Assembly (NCBI RefSeq): GCF_003334765.1
Contig: NZ_QOWT01000023.1
Direction: 5' to 3' (one strand)
DNA from: Escherichia coli
Lineage (GTDB): Bacteria; Pseudomonadota; Gammaproteobacteria; Enterobacterales; Enterobacteriaceae
DNA length: 64,000 bases
Position 1 is the stretch's first letter. Each line of letters opens with the position of its first letter. The notes beneath the pieces were generated by a model. It was not told the origin of the DNA, ran no database searches, and worked only from the letters and a program-made list of their open reading frames with translations. This document shows, one piece after another, positions 42,409 to 52,279 of the stretch. Made by a program: the position numbers and the translations under genes.

Positions 42409-42496
42409 GTTCACTGCCGTACAGGCAGCTTAGAAATTCACAGGTAACATACTCCACCCGCCCACCATGTTCACTGCCGTACAGACAGATAAAATG
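42409..42496 (+). CRISPR. type I-F CRISPR remnant: two repeats and one 32-bp spacer, no cas genes in window
   Basis: Repeat 1 gttcactgccgtacaggcagcttagaaa (42409-42436) is the 28-bp E. coli/Yersinia subtype I-F repeat. Spacer ttcacaggtaacatactccacccgcccaccat (42437-42468). Repeat 2 gttcactgccgtacagacagataaaatg (42469-42496) is degenerate at its 3' end. Confidence 0.85.
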
Positions 42497-42540
42497 CGAA
42501 AAAAAAGCTCGCACTTTCGTACGAGCTCTTCTTTAAATAT

Positions 42541-42554
42541 GGCGGTGAGGGGGA
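42541..42554 (-). other. tRNA-Ser (serW) 3'-end fragment = island attachment-site core copy; no intact tRNA here
   Basis: tggcggtgaggggg is the reverse complement of the last 14 nt (incl. CCA) of E. coli tRNA-Ser(GGA). It sits exactly where the serW 3' end is expected, about 344 bp after clpA. The tRNA body is replaced by island DNA. Confidence 0.5.
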
Positions 42555-42600
42555 CCGCCTGAAATAAATCTGACTTAATCCGGGGGTGTTATATAATTTC

Positions 42601-42649
42601 ATTATAAACAATGTATTATACTTTTTTCTGTCCGATATTATCTAATGTA
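42601..42649 (+). repeat. direct repeat copy A upstream of int
   Basis: attataaacaatgtattatacttttttctgtccgatattatctaatgt; near-identical core to copy B at 44084-44105. Confidence 0.6.
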
Positions 42650-42713
42650 TTCTTAGTGAAGCGAGAGACTAATGGCATACTGGATGGCATACTAGAGTAA
42701 CAGGAATTAGCGT

Positions 42714-43931
42714 ATGGCAGTTTTGACGGATACTAAAGCAAGGCATATCAAACCTGATGACAAACCATTGCCCCATGGGGGAATTACAGGACTGACTCTT
42801 CATCCTTCTTCAGTAAAAGGGCGGGGTAAATGGGTTTTTCGTTATGTAAGTCCGGTGACACAAAAAAGGCGTAATGCTGGATTGGGAACTTATCCTGAGG
42901 TCAGTATTGCTGAAGCTGCACGTGCTGCCCGGATAATGCGAGAGCAACTTGCTGCAGGTGATGACCCACTGGAGATTAAAAAGGCTGAAGCTGAAAAAGT
43001 TGTTATCCCAACATTTGCCGATGCAGCCAGGCGTGTACATGCTGAATTGTCACCGGGATGGGAAAATCCAAAGCATGTCAGGCAGTGGTTATCGACGCTT
43101 GAAAATTACGCGTTTCCTCAACTGGGAGCAAAAACGCTGGATTCGATTACGGCTGCGGACGTGGCAGAAACACTGCGTCCAGTCTGGTTAACCTTGTCAG
43201 AAACGGCAAGCCGGGTTAAACAGCGCATTCATGTTGTTATGCAGTGGGGATGGGCGCACGGTTTTTGTGTGGCAAACCCTGTTGATGTGGTTGGCCATTT
43301 GCTTCCTCAGCAGACAAGAGGACGTGATGAACACCAACCCGCAATGCCCTGGAGGCAGTTACCGCTTTTTGTGGCGACCAGTGTGTATACAGATGAACCT
43401 TATAATGTTACCCGGGCACTGTTATTAATGGTGATACTTACAGCAACCCGCTCGGGCGAAGCCAGGGGAATGCGCTGGGCTGAAATTGATTTTCATAAGC
43501 GGATATGGACTATACCCGCAGAAAGAATGAAAGCCAGGATACAGCATCGTGTTCCTTTATCCCGGCAGGCCATTCACATTCTGGAAAATATACGTGGTTT
43601 GCATGATGAACTAGTGTTTCCTTCTCCCAGAAAGCAGCAGATCCTTTCAGATATGGTGTTGACGAGTTTTCTGCGTAAAAAGAAAGCCATCAGTGATATA
43701 CCGGGGCGAGTTGCCACGGCACATGGTTTTCGCTCAACATTCAGGGACTGGTGTAGTGAACAGGGGTATTCGCGGGATCTGGCGGAAAGGGCGCTCGCTC
43801 ATACGCTGAAAAATAAGGTTGAGGCGGCATATCATCGTACTGATCTACTGGAGCAGCGTGTACCGATGATGCAGGCATGGGCGGATTATGTGATGTCTCA
43901 ACTTGCTAAAAACACTAAGGAATTCGCTTAG
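42714..43931 (+). CDS. P4-family tyrosine integrase
   Basis: 405-aa ORF with N-terminal MAVLTDTKARHIKPDDKPLPHGGITGLTLHP and C-terminal catalytic region (...AHGFRSTFRDW...RALAHTLKNKVEAAYHRTDLLEQRVPMMQAW) typical of tRNA-site phage integrases. Confidence 0.9.
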   Translation: MAVLTDTKARHIKPDDKPLPHGGITGLTLHPSSVKGRGKWVFRYVSPVTQKRRNAGLGTYPEVSIAEAARAARIMREQLAAGDDPLEIKKAEAEKVVIPTFADAARRVHAELSPGWENPKHVRQWLSTLENYAFPQLGAKTLDSITAADVAETLRPVWLTLSETASRVKQRIHVVMQWGWAHGFCVANPVDVVGHLLPQQTRGRDEHQPAMPWRQLPLFVATSVYTDEPYNVTRALLLMVILTATRSGEARGMRWAEIDFHKRIWTIPAERMKARIQHRVPLSRQAIHILENIRGLHDELVFPSPRKQQILSDMVLTSFLRKKKAISDIPGRVATAHGFRSTFRDWCSEQGYSRDLAERALAHTLKNKVEAAYHRTDLLEQRVPMMQAWADYVMSQLAKNTKEFA

Positions 43932-44045
43932 TTTCATGGACTGGCATACTCAGAGTAGCCAAATGGTTACTGCTTTCTTTTTTGAAAAATAAATGCAATG
44001 CCAGTTCGTAATGAAAACCTGGCATTGCACTCAGCTAACGATTAT

Positions 44046-44105
44046 TCATTATTATAACGAATAATACACTTGTGATAATTTATTTTTTGTCCGATAGTAT
44101 CTATA
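44046..44105 (+). repeat. direct repeat copy B downstream of int
   Basis: attattataacgaataatacacttgtgataatttattttttgtccgatagtatctatagt. Confidence 0.6.
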
Positions 44106-45630
44106 GTCTGTTTCGGTGATACTTCAGTATGTTTTGATGATCACAAATGAAAACTCCGGCATCGAATGCAGGAATATTTAGTTTTTTTGCCAGTTCGGAT
44201 GGTGTAATCGTGTTTCCTATATAAACAACCAGGTTATCATCAATCCTTATTTTCCTTTGTTCCGCCAGTATGTCAAGTGCTTCATCCAGAACACATTTTT
44301 TCCTGAGAGCATATGGGGCATATTGTAAAATATAACTTTTCTGGAATATGTAACCTGCTGTTGTGATAATTCTTTTCTGAAGCCATTTATCAAGTTTCTC
44401 AGCCGGGGATATTTCCCGAAGGGATTCAAGTTTATATATAAGATGCTTGAAATAAAATTCAATGAGATAAATGGCGCTATTAGTACTTTCCAGCGTTATT
44501 ACTGTCGAGTCTGGATCTTTCTCCAGTTCCAGAAGTGCTGCTATCCTGACAACCTGCTCTCTTTTTCTGACAATAATGTCTTCAAAAGTACCCATATGAG
44601 GATTCTGTCTGACAGTATCCATATTTTCTTTGTGAAAGCGCTCCAGTGCGCGGGATGCTGCATTTGATAATGTCATGCAGATGCGCTCTTTACTTTTTGC
44701 ACGTCTTTCTCTGGATGCTCTCAGAGAGTCTCTGATCTGACTGCCAAAACTTTTCTTACGAAAACAGCTTGCACATTGTTGCGTCACAACAGGAATGGCA
44801 GTATGCGGTTCTGTCGTCATTATTTTAATTGCTCCGGGTTCGCAAAATAGCAACCGGGCCAGAAAGCCATTGCCCCGGATCTGATCGCCAGTGAGAGTAA
44901 AAAACTTATTAAATATTACCGGTTGAGTCAGTATAAGTATAGTGAGACGGACATCATTCAGCCGGAATCCGGGTCTGGATGCTCGTTCAACGTTGACGGG
45001 TTGCCCACTCCATAATGTGTTGTACAGTGCCGATTTGCGTTCGAAACGCTTATCCAGAATAGTACCTCCTTCGTCAGACAGCAACAGAAGAGAGGGGGAC
45101 TGGCTGAGTTTCAAAGCTATCCCTTCTGGTGTCGCGTCATTAACGATGAGAACCTGTTGTGTGGGAGGTACGGGTTTATTTGCTATACACTTTTCAAGTG
45201 CTGCTCGTGCAGCAGCAGCATTTTCCGGGGATCTTTCCATTTCCTTTTTATATCTCCGCTCCAGTATTTTTTTATCTGTTGTCCACATCTCCATCATTCG
45301 GTCATAGTTTTTCTTATCGTCGATATATGCCTGATGTAGTTCTTCTTCTGTTTCATGAACAGGAGCGATTAATTTTGCACAGGCAGAGGTTTTTCCACTG
45401 CCTGATGCTGATGAAAGACACATAAATATCTGAAGGCTGGTACGCTGTCCTCCGGAAAGTTCAACTTCATGCGTATCCTGGACTGAGGCAGCCTTGACCG
45501 TCAGCATAACAGACAGCAGTATTTCACGGCTTATTCCCGTTTCTTCATGCATTTCATTAAGTAATGCCTGGCTCCTGTCAGGCAGTTTAGTTATGTCAAG
45601 TTCAGGGAGTGATAGTTTTGTCGTCATCAT
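44101..45630 (-). CDS. DUF3987-like (YfjI-like) protein with P-loop motif; putative island replication/primase-associated protein
   Basis: 509-aa ORF downstream of alpA on the same strand, motif SASGSGKTSACAKL. Start uncertain because of a 29-nt overlap with the alpA stop. Confidence 0.5.
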   Translation of the reverse strand: MMTTKLSLPELDITKLPDRSQALLNEMHEETGISREILLSVMLTVKAASVQDTHEVELSGGQRTSLQIFMCLSSASGSGKTSACAKLIAPVHETEEELHQAYIDDKKNYDRMMEMWTTDKKILERRYKKEMERSPENAAAARAALEKCIANKPVPPTQQVLIVNDATPEGIALKLSQSPSLLLLSDEGGTILDKRFERKSALYNTLWSGQPVNVERASRPGFRLNDVRLTILILTQPVIFNKFFTLTGDQIRGNGFLARLLFCEPGAIKIMTTEPHTAIPVVTQQCASCFRKKSFGSQIRDSLRASRERRAKSKERICMTLSNAASRALERFHKENMDTVRQNPHMGTFEDIIVRKREQVVRIAALLELEKDPDSTVITLESTNSAIYLIEFYFKHLIYKLESLREISPAEKLDKWLQKRIITTAGYIFQKSYILQYAPYALRKKCVLDEALDILAEQRKIRIDDNLVVYIGNTITPSELAKKLNIPAFDAGVFICDHQNILKYHRNRL

Positions 45631-45907
45631 TAAGTTCCTTTTGTTTGTTTTCAGGTTCAGACCAGGCTGGTGCCGTATGTAACGTCAGCCACTCATCGAT
45701 GGCAGATGCCCGCCAGCCAACGGATGCACTTCCAAGCCTTATCGGTTTGGGAAAGGTAGGGTCGTGGTATTTCGAGGCCGGATTTATTTTCACGTAAATC
45801 GTGGACCTGGATATACCCAGCAGCCGGGTAAGTTCAGCCATACGCAGGATGCGTGAAGGTGTGTCAAGCTGTCCGGTTTGATTTGACATATTGTTCTCCA
45901 TATGCAT
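45602..45907 (-). CDS. alpA: AlpA-family phage transcriptional regulator (HTH)
   Basis: ...ILRMAELTRLLGISRSTIYVKINPASKYHDPTFPKPIRLGSASVGWRASAIDEWL matches the AlpA/prophage CP4-57 regulator signature. True start may be the internal MSNQTGQ. Confidence 0.75.
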   Translation of the reverse strand: MHMENNMSNQTGQLDTPSRILRMAELTRLLGISRSTIYVKINPASKYHDPTFPKPIRLGSASVGWRASAIDEWLTLHTAPAWSEPENKQKELNDDDKTITP

Positions 45908-45962
45908 TGCACGTTGTGGTATCAGTTTGATAGCTTAAGGTCGGAATGTCCCCTGCGATAAA

Positions 45963-47825: not shown

Positions 47826-47861
47826 ACTCATCTGAGTGTGTTTTGAGTCAATAATCTTTAT

Positions 47862-47908
47862 ATCCCCCTGCTAATTTTGCTAACCATTAGCAAAATTAGC
47901 AGGGGGAT
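47862..47908. repeat. perfect 22-bp-arm inverted repeat (palindrome) 3' of the 620-aa ORF
   Basis: atccccctgctaattttgctaa-cca-ttagcaaaattagcagggggat; arms 47862-47883 and 47887-47908. Confidence 0.9.
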
Positions 47909-48176
47909 TATCTATGTCTGGCAAGAGAAAATTCTATAATAGTATGATTTCTTTGTTTATTTTGTTTTTCAATTAGAATGGTGTGTTTTTGTGATCTATG
48001 TCTAATTGTTTTGTATTCTTAGCGCCATCCCATTCATGGGCAGATGTACATACCGCCCCTATTAGATTGATGGGTTGCATGTTCATTGTATCTGTAAAAT
48101 ATGCCAGTTTTGACATTAATACATAATCTGTAATTCGGTGTAAGCTCTTGTCTGGTGAATTATGTTGCGTATTCCG

Positions 48177-48246
48177 CTCTATTCGATCACGGATTGGGCC
48201 AAATCATGATCGATTCGAATGCCAAACTGCGATCGATTCAGATGCC
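48177..48246 (+). repeat. GATC-containing direct repeats (iteron-like) in AT-rich non-coding region
   Basis: gatcgattcgaatgcc (48208-48223) and gatcgattcagatgcc (48231-48246), plus related attcgatcac at 48181-48190. Three Dam GATC sites fall within about 50 bp. Confidence 0.6.
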
Positions 48247-49200
48247 ATTTTGCATTATGTTAGTGGCTTATTCTTCTTGTTCTTTTTTACAGGTTATGTA
48301 AGTGTGATTATCCTGATTACTGGTCACTCATTATATACTGAGTCGACAAAACAAATGAGTATTAACTGAAGTTTTTATACAGTGATCATCTGTCTGGTTA
48401 GGTTAGTTAGTTCTGGGAGAATCACATTTATTTCATATACCATGAATAATTAAGGTTAATTAGTATTATTAGTTGGAGTTATGGTATTGTGTGTCTGTGC
48501 CGTATTGTTTGTATATTTGTTGTATAACTTATCTCTTTACGTGGTAATGTCACTCCTCTTTATGCTAAGTATTCTGTATGTGTGTAATGCATATATCTCC
48601 ATACACTACGCAGTGAAGCATATGGGGGAAGCTGTATGGTGAATTATGTGTGTAATGTTGTCCTGTACGTACTTAACACTGGTTACGTATCGGAACACTA
48701 TTAGAGCGTGTTATGACTCCGTTACAGTTTATAGGTATAGGTAAATATGATCTTTTCTGTATGGAACAATCTTCTTATGGTGTGTGGGTATGTTCTGTAT
48801 ACCATTATTCTTTTATGCTAATGATTAAATACCCGTGGTCTCTCTCGGCTTTACTTAATGGTTCGACAATATTAATAGCGATGTTGCCTGTAGCTAGCCG
48901 ATACTGAGTTTTGTGAATGTCAGATTACTTCCTGTAAAGAATTTAGTGGTGCTTCCTGAAACTCAATTCTATGAGGTGTGTTTTTCCATTGTAATTCGTA
49001 CTGGTTCTCAGTTTAAGAGAGTCTCACTGTATTCTGAAGTATTACCTCATCACAGTAATGCGGTAATACAAAACAGTTTTATCAGGTTGTCTGTGCTGCT
49101 GGTTTACTTCGTTTATTAATGCCGTGGTACGGCGTTTCTCTACTCTCAGTATTTACGTAAGTCTCTCTTCCTGTGAGTTTTATAAAGTAAGGACTATAAA

Positions 49201-49764
49201 ATGTATAATGCCAATCCCAATTACAAAATGGATTTCATGATTCTGAAAGACGTGAATGAACACATGGATGGTATGTTTCAACGTTTTTCTAAACTGTTAC
49301 CTTTCAGAATTGATTTTGCTTACAGGAAAGACACGCCCAGTTTCGGTCATTCCTGTAAGCACAGTATGTGTATGGAAATATACCGTTTACTTTGCGAAAC
49401 CCAGACGATGTTGGCGGGATATTACTGGGTAATGGAATATACACCAGACAAAGGGCTTCATATTCATTTTGTCGGCTACCTGGATGGGCAACGTCACAAG
49501 AACTCTTATCAGATATCCAGGCAACTGGGAGATATCTGGAGGCGGATCACGGAAGGGGAGGGTTACTTTCACCTTTGCCGGGCTAAAGACAAATACCCGG
49601 TGCGTATCGATCACGTGATGCACTATAGTGATAAGTCCGCGGTAGACAACTTACGTTACGCCCTTAGCTATCTGGCTAAACAGGATCAGAAAGAACACGG
49701 TATTATTCTGGGCCGTAGCAGGCTTCCCGAAAAAAGCAACCGGGGCCGACCACGACATAACTGA
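49201..49764 (+). CDS. YagK/YfjJ-family (inovirus Gp2-like) protein with HUH-type motif
   Basis: 187-aa ORF containing GLHIHFVGY (His-hydrophobic-His) and a downstream Tyr-containing region, reminiscent of rolling-circle/HUH initiators and CP4-57 YfjJ. Confidence 0.5.
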   Translation: MYNANPNYKMDFMILKDVNEHMDGMFQRFSKLLPFRIDFAYRKDTPSFGHSCKHSMCMEIYRLLCETQTMLAGYYWVMEYTPDKGLHIHFVGYLDGQRHKNSYQISRQLGDIWRRITEGEGYFHLCRAKDKYPVRIDHVMHYSDKSAVDNLRYALSYLAKQDQKEHGIILGRSRLPEKSNRGRPRHN

Positions 49765-49840
49765 ATTACAGTTGTATTAGGTATTAGAATTAAGTTTCTG
49801 TAAGTTGTTGGGAGGTGCTTGAGTTAATAGGCAGAAGAGG

Positions 49841-52279
49841 GTGGGGCGCTTTGTCATCAGTGTAGGGGACCCGAATTTCTGCCGTGGTGCCTCAGTGGAT
49901 CGGATACAGGTAACGAATATGGTTCATAAATCTGACAGTGATGAATTAGCTGCATTGAGGGCAGAAAATGCCCGTCTGGTCTCATTACTTGAAGCTCATG
50001 GGATTGAATGGCGACGTAAACCGCCGATCTCTGTGCAGCGCGTTTCTGTATTATCCACCAATGAGAAGGTTGCATTATTTCGTCGGTTGTTTCGCGGGCG
50101 TGATGATGTATGGGCACTTAGATGGGAAAGTAAAACCAGCGGCAAATCAGGGTACTCTCCTGCCTGCGCTAACGAATGGCAGGCGAGAATATGCGGTAAG
50201 CCCCGGATAAAATGTGGGGACTGCGCTCACCGTCAGTTGATTCCTGTATCTGATCTCGTCATCTACTACCATCTGGCAGGTACCCATACTGCCGGGATGT
50301 ATCCGTTGCTGGAAGATGATTCCTGTTATTTTCTGGCTGTTGATTTTGATGAAGCTGAATGGCAGAAGGATGCATCCGCATTCATGCGATCCTGTGATGA
50401 GCTGGGTGTACCCGCTGCGCTGGAAATATCCCGTTCACGTCAGGGAGCGCATGTCTGGATATTTTTTGCTTCACGAGTTTCGGCCCGCGAAGCTCGCCGT
50501 CTGGGGACTGCTATTATTAGTTATACGTGTAATCGAACTCGACAGCTGCGATTGGGTTCTTATGACCGATTATTTCCTAATCAGGATACGATGCCAAAAG
50601 GGGGATTTGGTAATCTCATAGCATTACCTCTGCAAAAAAGACCGCGTGAATCGGGGGGAAGTGTTTTTGTTGATATGAATTTCCAGCCTTATTCTGATCA
50701 ATGGGCTTTTCTTGCATCGGTGATCCCGATGAATGTGCAGAATATTGAACCGACGATATTACGGGCTACAGGAAGTATCCATCCTCTGGATGTGAACTTT
50801 ATCAACGAAGAAGACCTGGGTACGCCATGGGAAGGGAAAAAATCATCAGGAAACAGACTGAATATTTCTATTGCAGAACCGCTGAAAATCACGCTGGCAA
50901 ACCAGATCTATTTCGAAAAAGCGCAATTACCTCAGGTGCTGATTAACCGACTTATTCGGCTGGCAGCATTTCCGAACCCTGAGTTTTATAAGGCTCAGGC
51001 AATGCGTATGTCAGTCTGGAATAAGCCCCGTGTTATAGGTTGTGCGGAGAATTACCCGCAACACATTGCGTTGCCCCAGGGATGTCTGGACAGCGTATTA
51101 TCTTTCCTTAGGGACAACAATATTGCTGCAGAATTAATCGATAAACGATTTGTCGGGACGGAATGTAATGCCGTTTTTATGGGAAACCTCAGAGCGGAGC
51201 AGGAAGAGGCCGTTTCGGCATTACTCCGTTATGACACTGGTGTGCTTTGTGCGCCAACGGCTTTTGGTAAGACAGTTACCGCAGCGGCAGTGATTGCCAG
51301 ACGGAAAGTGAATACACTGATACTGGTACACCGGACTGAATTGCTGAAGCAGTGGCAGGAGCGTCTCGAGGTGTTTCTGCAGGTTGGTGACAATATTGGT
51401 ATTATCGGGGGAGGTAAACATAAACCCTGTGGCAATATTGATATTGCGGTGGTGCAGTCCATATCCAGACACGGAGAAGTTGAACCTCTGGTCAGGAATT
51501 ATGGGCAAATCATTGTGGATGAGTGCCATCATATTGGCGCGGTTTCATTTTCTGCGATTCTGAAGGAAACGAATGCCAGATATCTGCTTGGCCTGACGGC
51601 AACACCAATCCGACGGGATGGTCTGCATCCCATTATTTTTATGTACTGTGGTGCCATTCGCCATACAGCGGTCCGCCCGAAGGAAAGCCCACATAATCTG
51701 GAGGTACTGACCCGTTCCCGTTTTACATCTGGTCATTTACCATCGGATGCGAGAATCCAGGATATTTTCAGAGAAATTGCTCTGGATCATGACAGAACGG
51801 TGGCGATAGCTGAAGAAGCCATGAAAGCTTTCGGGCAGGGGCGAAAAGTTCTGGTACTGACTGAACGTACAGATCATCTGGATGAGATAGCATCAGTGAT
51901 GAATTCACTGAAATTGTCCCCCTTTATTCTCCATGGACGACTATCGAAAAAAAAGCGTGCGATGCTGATATCCGGGCTGAATGCTCTTCCTCCTGATTCT
52001 CCCCGTATTTTGTTGTCAACAGGCAGACTTATTGGTGAGGGATTTGACCACCCTCCGCTGGATACGCTGATTCTTGCCATGCCTGTGTCATGGAAAGGGA
52101 CATTACAGCAGTATGCGGGACGTCTACACAGAGAGCATACCGGTAAAAGCGATGTCAGGATCATTGATTTTGTGGATACCGCGTATCCAGTGCTGCTCAG
52201 AATGTGGGATAAACGCCAGCGGGGTTATAAGGCGATGGGGTACAGGATTGTGGCTGATGGTGAAGGGCTTTCATTTTAA
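49841..52279 (+). CDS. PrimPol-like (AEP) N-terminal domain fused to SF2 DExH helicase
   Basis: Helicase motifs: I APTAFGKT, II IVDECHH, III GLTATP, VI QYAGRLHR. N-terminal region has AEP-like motifs FLAVDFDE (DxD) and QGAHVWIFF (sxH) plus a Cys cluster CGKPRIKCGDCAH. Likely start is the ATG at 49919 (MVHKSD). Confidence 0.7.
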   Translation: MGRFVISVGDPNFCRGASVDRIQVTNMVHKSDSDELAALRAENARLVSLLEAHGIEWRRKPPISVQRVSVLSTNEKVALFRRLFRGRDDVWALRWESKTSGKSGYSPACANEWQARICGKPRIKCGDCAHRQLIPVSDLVIYYHLAGTHTAGMYPLLEDDSCYFLAVDFDEAEWQKDASAFMRSCDELGVPAALEISRSRQGAHVWIFFASRVSAREARRLGTAIISYTCNRTRQLRLGSYDRLFPNQDTMPKGGFGNLIALPLQKRPRESGGSVFVDMNFQPYSDQWAFLASVIPMNVQNIEPTILRATGSIHPLDVNFINEEDLGTPWEGKKSSGNRLNISIAEPLKITLANQIYFEKAQLPQVLINRLIRLAAFPNPEFYKAQAMRMSVWNKPRVIGCAENYPQHIALPQGCLDSVLSFLRDNNIAAELIDKRFVGTECNAVFMGNLRAEQEEAVSALLRYDTGVLCAPTAFGKTVTAAAVIARRKVNTLILVHRTELLKQWQERLEVFLQVGDNIGIIGGGKHKPCGNIDIAVVQSISRHGEVEPLVRNYGQIIVDECHHIGAVSFSAILKETNARYLLGLTATPIRRDGLHPIIFMYCGAIRHTAVRPKESPHNLEVLTRSRFTSGHLPSDARIQDIFREIALDHDRTVAIAEEAMKAFGQGRKVLVLTERTDHLDEIASVMNSLKLSPFILHGRLSKKKRAMLISGLNALPPDSPRILLSTGRLIGEGFDHPPLDTLILAMPVSWKGTLQQYAGRLHREHTGKSDVRIIDFVDTAYPVLLRMWDKRQRGYKAMGYRIVADGEGLSF

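Follow-up and report, generated by a model that had tools for sequence, protein, structure and literature searches.

The attachment sites of P4, of KplE1 (CPS-53), and of the SRL pathogenicity island (SRL PAI) and the O-islands OI-43 and OI-48 are the closest described counterparts of the locus considered here, the integrase gene (int) of a genomic island in a 64,000-nucleotide stretch of Escherichia coli DNA (contig NZ_QOWT01000023.1 of assembly GCF_003334765.1; hereafter the window, in which position 1 is the first letter), where a short direct repeat lies on either side of int. In the P4 GenBank record, 12-bp 'attP arm sequence repeats' (GGGGGCAT) are annotated as tandem pairs on both arms of the phage attachment site (attP), the int-proximal pair lying just upstream of the int ATG, and orphan copies are found within int and, inverted, at its ATG. 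Both Int and the excisionase Vis repress the P4 int promoter (Pint), as described in literature citing Piazzolla 2006. In KplE1, the attL arm overlaps the integrase promoter (PintS), the integrase IntS and the directionality factor TorI both repress int, and the TorI sites (GTTCG, GATCG and GTCCG) have the core on one side and the promoter-adjacent Int arm-type sites on the other. SRL PAI, OI-43 and OI-48 share one 14-bp repeat (TGGCGGTGAGGGGG) at serX/serW, and OI-43 and OI-48 excise precisely at ~1e-3 and 1e-4 (PMC3064760). Int-dependent precise excision is documented for islands of this type, and the literature examined gives the core repeat alone, with no arm motifs (PMC3064760; PMC7545054).

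The window spans the clpS-clpA/serW locus of E. coli, and the island, which is of the P4 type and belongs to the SRL PAI and OI-43/48 integrase family of serW/serX, begins to the right of the 14-bp core. Judging from comparison with related islands, the repeat copy upstream of int is a conserved attachment-arm element of a known kind, fixed in position, and the copy downstream of int is an extra one limited to a single island lineage; the bracketing of int is a minor, lineage-specific feature. The main elements are:

42540–42553, minus strand: 14-bp attachment (att) core and island direct repeat (TGGCGGTGAGGGGG), the displaced 3′ end of tRNA-Ser (serW).

42568–42575, plus strand: A0, a weak A-like element (ATCTGACT) adjoining the core, whose counterparts in the aligned Budvicia and Salmonella relatives are exact copies of GTCCAATR.

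42622–42648, plus strand: repeat copy 1, or motif A1, in its extended form ttttttctgtccgatattatctaatgt, comprising a T-run and the core GTCCGATA (GTCCGAT type) at 42630–42637.

42673–42693, plus strand: motifs B1 and B2, tandem TGGCATACT gga TGGCATACT with a 12-bp period, 21–41 bp upstream of the int ATG, candidate Int arm-type sites.

42714–43931, plus strand: int, encoding a P4-family tyrosine integrase (1218 bp; 405 amino acids).

44083–44107, plus strand: repeat copy 2, or orphan motif A2, in its extended form ttttttgtccgatagtatctatagt, with the core GTCCGATA at 44089–44096.

44101–45630, minus strand: DUF3987 (YfjI-like) gene, convergent with int, with its stop codon at 44101–44103.

45602–45907, minus strand: alpA, encoding an AlpA-family helix-turn-helix protein (Pfam PF05930, E=2e-17) and preceding the DUF3987 gene in the operon.

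The direct repeat reported in a preliminary description of this locus was recovered, with both copies offset by 1–3 bp from the positions given there, and the accompanying placement of int and of the alpA-DUF3987 operon holds. In an ungapped register (42624–42644 versus 44083–44103) the copies are identical at 19 of 21 positions, with a spacing of 1459 bp. The corresponding degenerate 21-mer occurs exactly twice in the window, against 0.01 occurrences expected, and two matches were seen in 0 of 100 shuffles; local alignment of the int-upstream and int-downstream sequences scored 33, compared with 18.3 ± 2.7 for shuffled sequence, a score reached by 1 of 1000 shuffles. Copy 1 lies 66–92 bp upstream of the int ATG, and copy 2 begins 152 bp past the int stop and overlaps the DUF3987 stop codon. 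The additional similarity described for the preceding 20 bp is present, but gapped and AT-rich (33 of 44 columns) and weak when taken alone. A second repeat family, absent from that description, also flanks int: TGGCATACT is found at 42673, 42685 and 43942, three copies against 0.46 expected, and no shuffle contained three. The AT-rich flanks and the weak, gapped similarity ahead of the copies would suit a chance resemblance within AT-rich intergenic DNA, but with 0.01 occurrences expected per window, a second motif co-occurring and the motif conserved across lineages, this explanation is negligible.

Relatives of the locus were gathered by DNA search in E. coli, by a scan of genome contigs with Int, which returned mostly distant integrases and five useful loci, and from protein clusters with their contigs; a search of the plasmid collection gave no additional relatives. 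The 12 lineages obtained come from Escherichia, Edwardsiella, Budvicia, Limnobaculum, Citrobacter and Salmonella, encode Int proteins 72–97% identical, and integrate at two or more tRNA targets (Ser and Asp). In the window, the int-proximal arm consists of the 14-bp serW core, 90 bp to A, 44 bp to the tandem TGGCATACY pair (B) and ~20 bp to the int ATG. Across the 12 lineages the distance from core to A is 89–91 bp and that from A to B1 is 43–44 bp, and the sole invariant blocks are TCC of A (GTCC in 11/12) and TGGCATAC of B; the arm motifs are fixed in place and the spacers between them diverge. B is present in two to four copies with a 12-bp period, the third copy, where present, following after 11 bp. 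Several lineages have an additional exact copy of A adjoining the core (e.g. GTCCAATACAA, found twice in Budvicia), at which position the window carries the weak ATCTGACT of A0, ~62 bp from A1. A0 overlaps the −35 element of a promoter-like site (42570–42597; CTGACT-16-TATAAT). An outward-facing minus-strand promoter over A1 (TAGATA-18-TATAAT) was not adopted, as other genera do not keep the sequence context of this promoter.

Of serW, only the last 14 nt (TGGCGGTGAGGGGG) remain at 42540–42553, where GGCGGT (42541–46) and ACCGCC (42554–59) form an inverted pair with a 7-bp spacer, as is usual for core-type sites on either side of an overlap region. A tRNA search found no intact tRNA in the window, which places the intact serW beyond position 64000, and the far arm was therefore taken from the islands of E2348/69 and FG31-1. 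At the far end of the E2348/69 island, which is at serX, GTCCGATA is followed after 44 bp by TGGCATACC cga TGGCATACT and, after another 76 bp, by a second copy of the core and an intact tRNA-Ser. Far arms of this type were found in 1,356 E. coli genomes, every one beside tRNA-Ser; their variable positions are few and mostly outside the motifs, and one variant turns A into GTCTGATA. The aspV island of FG31-1, an independent family with Int ~73% identical, ends with GTCCGAAG, 44 bp, TGGCATACT gga TGGCATACC, 75 bp, and the core with tRNA-Asp. B pairs and motif A, both distinct from the core, are thus found on the int-proximal arm and, in two island families, on the far arm, so the A–44 bp–B–B unit belongs to both arms of the circular attP. 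Fixed position together with recurrence on the other arm is the pattern expected of a site for a recombination or regulatory protein. The earlier suggestion of paired protein-binding sites therefore stands for the upstream copy, and does not extend to a conserved pair, since the downstream copy is lineage-specific.

The island encodes both candidate binding proteins. Int has the Pfam domains Arm-DNA-bind_3 (residues 4–92, 2e-15), Phage_int_M and Phage_integrase, that is, an N-terminal arm-DNA-binding domain and a tyrosine-recombinase catalytic domain, and AlpA is a small helix-turn-helix protein of the kind expected of a directionality factor. B is probably the arm-type site of Int, because tandem 12-bp repeats are present on both arms and beside int, co-vary with Int and match the annotated arm repeats of P4. 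The preliminary description had offered the copies of A as candidate arm-type or AlpA sites; for the arm-type function the adjacent tandem TGGCATACY repeats, which it missed, are more likely.

A is probably a site for AlpA, a homologue of the P4 excisionase Vis, for four reasons: GTCC is constant across differing integrases, the GTCC clusters of P4 include the int-proximal arm and the region upstream of vis, the presence of alpA goes with an intact A, and TorI recognises GTTCG, GATCG and GTCCG. In P4, GTCC lies 44 bp before the int-proximal repeat pair and TTCCGATT ~46 bp before the other pair, and same-strand GTCC clusters occur at just three places, the int-proximal arm and the sequence upstream of vis among them. 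The region just ahead of vis is a Vis-regulated late promoter, and binding of Vis at the P4 late promoters was reportedly described by Polo and co-workers in 1996. K-12 CP4-57 has GTCC, 44 bp and tandem GGCCCA repeats, with an inverted copy near the intA ATG, so that among P4, CP4-57 and the serW/serX family the arm repeat changes with the integrase and GTCC is constant. In all 11 loci with an intact GTCCRAT (eight distinct int-upstream arms), alpA is found within ~5 kb, and two lineages without a nearby alpA have a deviant A (GTCCAGCG and ATCCGATG) and an intact B. As a separate observation on P4 (sequence L109), GTCC is under-represented overall (59 versus 91 expected), and the clusters at 3984–4050 and 9048–9072, on one strand, have GTCC-N16-GTCCGT in common between the int-proximal attP arm and the vis upstream region.

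An alternative, with the remaining architecture unchanged, has motif A recognised by Int, whether as another class of arm site or as something resembling a core-type site, or else by a DNA-bending protein of the host; we regard this as possible, although considerably less probable than recognition by AlpA. The placement of A on both arms within a fixed A–B–B unit is what integrase arm sites usually show and the sites of directionality factors usually do not, the island-side core half-site of the tRNA-Asp lineages (GTCCGCC or GTCTGCC) resembles A, and the T-run before A suggests bent DNA. Recognition by AlpA better accommodates a GTCC that is constant in P4, CP4-57 and the serW/serX family while arm repeats follow the integrase, and the decay of A, but not of B, in the two lineages without nearby alpA. 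Inspection of the arm sequence also revealed no good consensus for integration host factor (IHF) at A. Directionality factors usually bind several direct repeats about one helical turn apart on one arm, an arrangement not seen here, where A is single on both arms; the GTCC pairs of P4 are 20 bp apart, and the island has no such pairs.

Further candidate links between AlpA and A-like sequence were considered and set aside. Autoregulation of AlpA through motif A was rejected, as no consistent A-like site is found upstream of alpA across lineages; one distant tRNA-Ser island (L099; Int 81% identical) has a 13/15 match. There, GTCTGATAGTGTCTA (L099 7615–7629) lies 107 bp upstream of alpA, is identical to copy 2 (GTCCGATAGTATCTA) at 13 of 15 positions and has the same orientation relative to alpA transcription, which hints at an extended AlpA-related operator. 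In the window, the divergent promoter region between alpA and the adjacent gene for a 620-amino acid protein (45930–45960) contains GGTTGGTTT..ATCGCAGGGGACATTCCGACC, conserved in a close sister, with a GTCC/GGAC element that is partly kept in remoter lineages (as GGACA or GAGACA). The Pseudomonas aeruginosa 'AlpA binding element' GGGACG, the complement of which holds GTCC, was not counted in favour, since the AlpA of that species is a Q-like antiterminator that takes its name from the alp lysis locus and not from the AlpA of E. coli. Membership of TorI in the AlpA family was likewise not accepted, being marginal only (E=0.16), with no BLAST similarity to the island AlpA.

Taken together, these comparisons support, with moderate confidence, a reading in which the repeat is part of the array of protein-binding sites in a P4-type attachment site and A2 and B3, the orphan copies downstream of int, are probably duplicated arm DNA that is dispensable. 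Under this reading, the B repeats would serve as arm-type sites for Int and A would take an accessory factor, most likely AlpA acting as a Vis-like recombination directionality factor; Int and AlpA bound at A and B would fold the arms onto the core during integration and excision. As the arm would overlap the int promoter and leader (promoter-like site at 42570–42597), its occupancy should also regulate int, and Int and AlpA may throttle int transcription as do Int and Vis in P4 and IntS and TorI in KplE1.

The same promoter-like site would put A1 inside the int leader, which raises a different possibility, that the 3′ end of the alpA-DUF3987 mRNA, carrying the complement of A2, pairs with A1 in the int 5′ leader and regulates int in trans. 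Direct repeats on convergent transcripts do give complementary RNAs, here with perfect blocks of 9 bp and 6 bp, but the energy of the duplex is no better than that of shuffles (64/500 at least as good), conservation of the attachment arm fully accounts for A1, and in sister lineages the A-like copy is located beyond the operon terminator. Such pairing is very unlikely to explain the repeat.

The surroundings of the downstream copies include three more features:

43942–43950, plus strand: orphan motif B3 (TGGCATACT), 10 bp past the int stop, with likeness to B2 extending to TGGCATACT(c)AGAGTA.

43954–43985: int terminator-like hairpin, following B3.

43978–44033, minus strand: terminator of the alpA-DUF3987 operon, with a 15-bp stem and U-tract (−23.9 kcal/mol, z = −4.3), the stem being conserved in sister islands.

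A2 is located between the DUF3987 stop codon (44101–03) and the operon terminator, and A2 and B3 thus fall within the 3′ untranslated parts of two converging transcripts, those of int and alpA-DUF3987, flanking back-to-back terminators. They do not follow the A–44 bp–B–B arrangement, B3 lying 146 bp before A2. Directly upstream of copy 2 is an AT-rich palindrome, ATTATTCATTAT t ATAACGAATAAT (44041–44065), overlapped by a minus-strand promoter-like site (TTATCA-16-TATAAT; 44078–44051).

Among 5,426 complete E. coli genomes, ~75 carry the full downstream segment, with identity of at least 99% throughout; its copies are too alike to reveal selection on A2. In more than 1,000 genomes with OI-43/48-type islands that share int and the upstream arm, the homology ends ~26 bp short of the int stop codon, and neither motif is found beyond; downstream copies were also not found in the Salmonella, Edwardsiella, Budvicia and Citrobacter relatives. 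The preliminary description had named absence of the motif from otherwise conserved related islands as grounds for giving up its proposal, and for the downstream copy that absence is what comparison with OI-43/48-type islands and other genera gives: islands sharing the integrase do not retain both copies. Because the downstream copy is missing from most islands with the same int, which excise, the bracketing is neither conserved nor required. The DUF3987 protein itself has close relatives in just two sister clusters (91% and 84% identical), beyond which identity falls to 30%. In the two sister lineages a different A1-like copy (GTCTGATATTTGCAATG) lies ~75 bp past the int stop, and at the DUF3987 stop there is just a degenerate GTCCCATAT. 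A hybrid junction indicating loss of int by recombination between A1 and A2 (at least 80% covered) was found in 0 of 5,426 genomes. Derivation of A2 and B3 from another arm, as a relic, was rejected: short-word BLAST of 43932–44112 against all collected loci matched A1 alone.

A2 and B3 are therefore extra copies limited to one island lineage. Their most likely origin, on sequence grounds, is a duplicated piece of arm DNA (or gene conversion), because identity between A2 and A1 runs far past the conserved core. They would be dispensable for recombination, and the same proteins may still bind them.

A functional role for the pair was weighed against this. Int, AlpA or both, bound at A1, B1 and B2 and at B3 and A2, could bridge the two sides, looping int or blocking convergent read-through, and so control int or excision. 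The two motif families each reappear beyond int, a combination that chance makes improbable, A2 and A1 share extended identity (19/21), and the placement is symmetric about two terminators, B3 following the stop of int and A2 that of DUF3987; sister lineages also hold A1-like copies at another spot in the same spacer, and P4 has orphan arm repeats within int and at its ATG. Nevertheless, most islands with the same Int lack the downstream sites and excise, B3 and A2 are not arranged as A–44 bp–B–B, with 146 bp between them, and the downstream segments, at least 99% identical, do not allow purifying selection to be assessed. Control by the paired copies is accordingly rated as unlikely. A narrower proposal, slightly less likely again, is that in the SRL-type lineage B3 (Int-type) and A2 (AlpA-type) form a second binding platform by the terminators that pairs with A1, B1 and B2, leaving int looped or shielded from convergent read-through.

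Duplicated, dispensable arm DNA remains the preferred account of the downstream copies, within the attachment-site reading of the repeat as a whole, and several points weigh against that reading or parts of it. The presence of A on both arms is unusual for the sites of a directionality factor, and Int or a host protein could read A; the assignments of A to AlpA and of B to Int are ones that we infer from sequence patterns. The equality of the 44-bp spacing with that in P4 and CP4-57 depends on which base is counted as the first of the repeat, and KpLE2 intB shows no GTCC, so not all P4-like integrases follow the plan, which can be generalised only within limits. With regard to A2 as a neutral relic, its match to A1 at 19 of 21 positions extends far past the conserved core, sister lineages carry the A1-like GTCTGATATTTGCAATG elsewhere in the same int-DUF3987 spacer, and GTCTGATAGTGTCTA, upstream of alpA in the distant tRNA-Ser island, equals A2 at 13 of 15 positions. 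Such recurrence of A-like copies could reflect selection and, along with the orphan arm repeats of P4, may leave room for an auxiliary role.

The host flank to the left of the core contains two further features:

42409–42496, between clpA and the serW terminator: remnant type I-F array of clustered regularly interspaced short palindromic repeats (CRISPR), already known, with two repeats (GTTCACTGCCGTACAGGCAG...) and one spacer (Rfam CRISPR-DR4).

42499–42534, minus strand: intrinsic terminator of the chromosomal serW tRNA gene, identified by a terminator scan and identical to the sequence downstream of serW in K-12.

K-12 also carries a sequence identical to the CRISPR remnant, and an Rfam scan detected nothing but the CRISPR repeat above threshold. 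To the right of alpA are the divergent gene for the 620-amino acid protein, then Gp2/YfjJ-like and TOTE primase genes, insertion sequence (IS) elements and espI. A ~1.4-kb AT-rich segment (47826–49200; 36% G+C) with no open reading frame of at least 100 amino acids separates the 620-amino acid gene from the Gp2/YfjJ-like gene, and includes a near-perfect long palindrome (47858–47912) that gives spurious matches to microRNA families in Rfam. The following region (49201–52279) holds a YagK/YfjJ (inovirus Gp2-like) gene and then a gene for an 812-amino acid protein, the counterpart of which in a near-identical island is labelled in RefSeq as a TOTE conflict-system archaeo-eukaryotic primase and which has NCBIfam matches to PrimPol and helicase; the two genes are a candidate defence module of the island. 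In many genomes, a unit made up of the 14-bp serW/serX core, part of the tRNA and the terminator is present in several tandem copies upstream of int. Such units, which carry the RefSeq label 'RtT sRNA' and are possibly scars of serial integration, were located at 1484, 1740, 4642 and 4824 in locus L101, at 4642 and 4825 in L103, and at 3805–3941 in L005.

Roughly one in four complete E. coli genomes carries the serW/serX integrase family, which moves large virulence and resistance islands, including SRL PAI, the tellurite/urease O-islands and islands carrying EspI, Iha and microcin genes. The arm map, with the core, GTCCGAT at +90, tandem TGGCATACY at +134 and +146 and a mirrored unit on the other arm, offers concrete targets for work on the silencing and release of these islands, and a constant GTCC beside integrase-specific arm repeats suggests a recognition element for AlpA/Vis-type excisionases. 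Neither the arm map nor the constant GTCC appears to have been described for this family in the literature examined, a scope outside which the SRL attP papers fall; within the same scope, no description of the DNA sites of such excisionases was found for the family. If the A2/B3 platform were to exist, it would act in that one lineage as an additional lock on expression of the integrase and on the stability of the island.

Compared with P4, the island Int is 32% identical to P4 Int (E=5e-50) and the island AlpA 36% identical to the P4 excisionase and regulator Vis (E=1e-10). Both elements have the core at a tRNA 3′ end, paired tandem 12-bp G-rich repeats with GGCAT on both arms, one pair just before the int ATG, GTCC 44 bp before the int-proximal pair, and orphan arm repeats in or near int. 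The two differ in the sequence of the repeat (GGGGGCAT in P4, TGGCATACY here), in the number of GTCC copies in the int-proximal arm (three in P4), and in the orientation of the core, which in the island (42540–42560) is inverted relative to int when compared with P4 (L109 4078–4097). In the island, the neighbour of int is the displaced fragment of the tRNA, the intact gene being at the opposite island end. Binding is documented for P4, whereas the island sites are candidates proposed from sequence.

KplE1 resembles the island in having an attachment arm that overlaps the integrase promoter, and differs in integrase lineage and in its arm-type motif (TAAA-containing in KplE1). The attP of lambda shares with the island a heterobivalent integrase, arm-type repeats on both arms, tandem sites beside int and accessory bending proteins; it has no sequence relationship to the island, lambda Xis sites are found on one arm only, and no IHF consensus was evident at the locus considered here. 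SRL PAI and OI-43/48 have the same integrase family and the same 14-bp repeat as the island. OI-43/48 (SpLE1) of O157:H7 are without the downstream A2 and B3, and int, at 1218 bp here and 1203 bp in O157, shows the reported 15-bp difference between SRL and OI alleles, a likeness to SRL that is taken from the published description.

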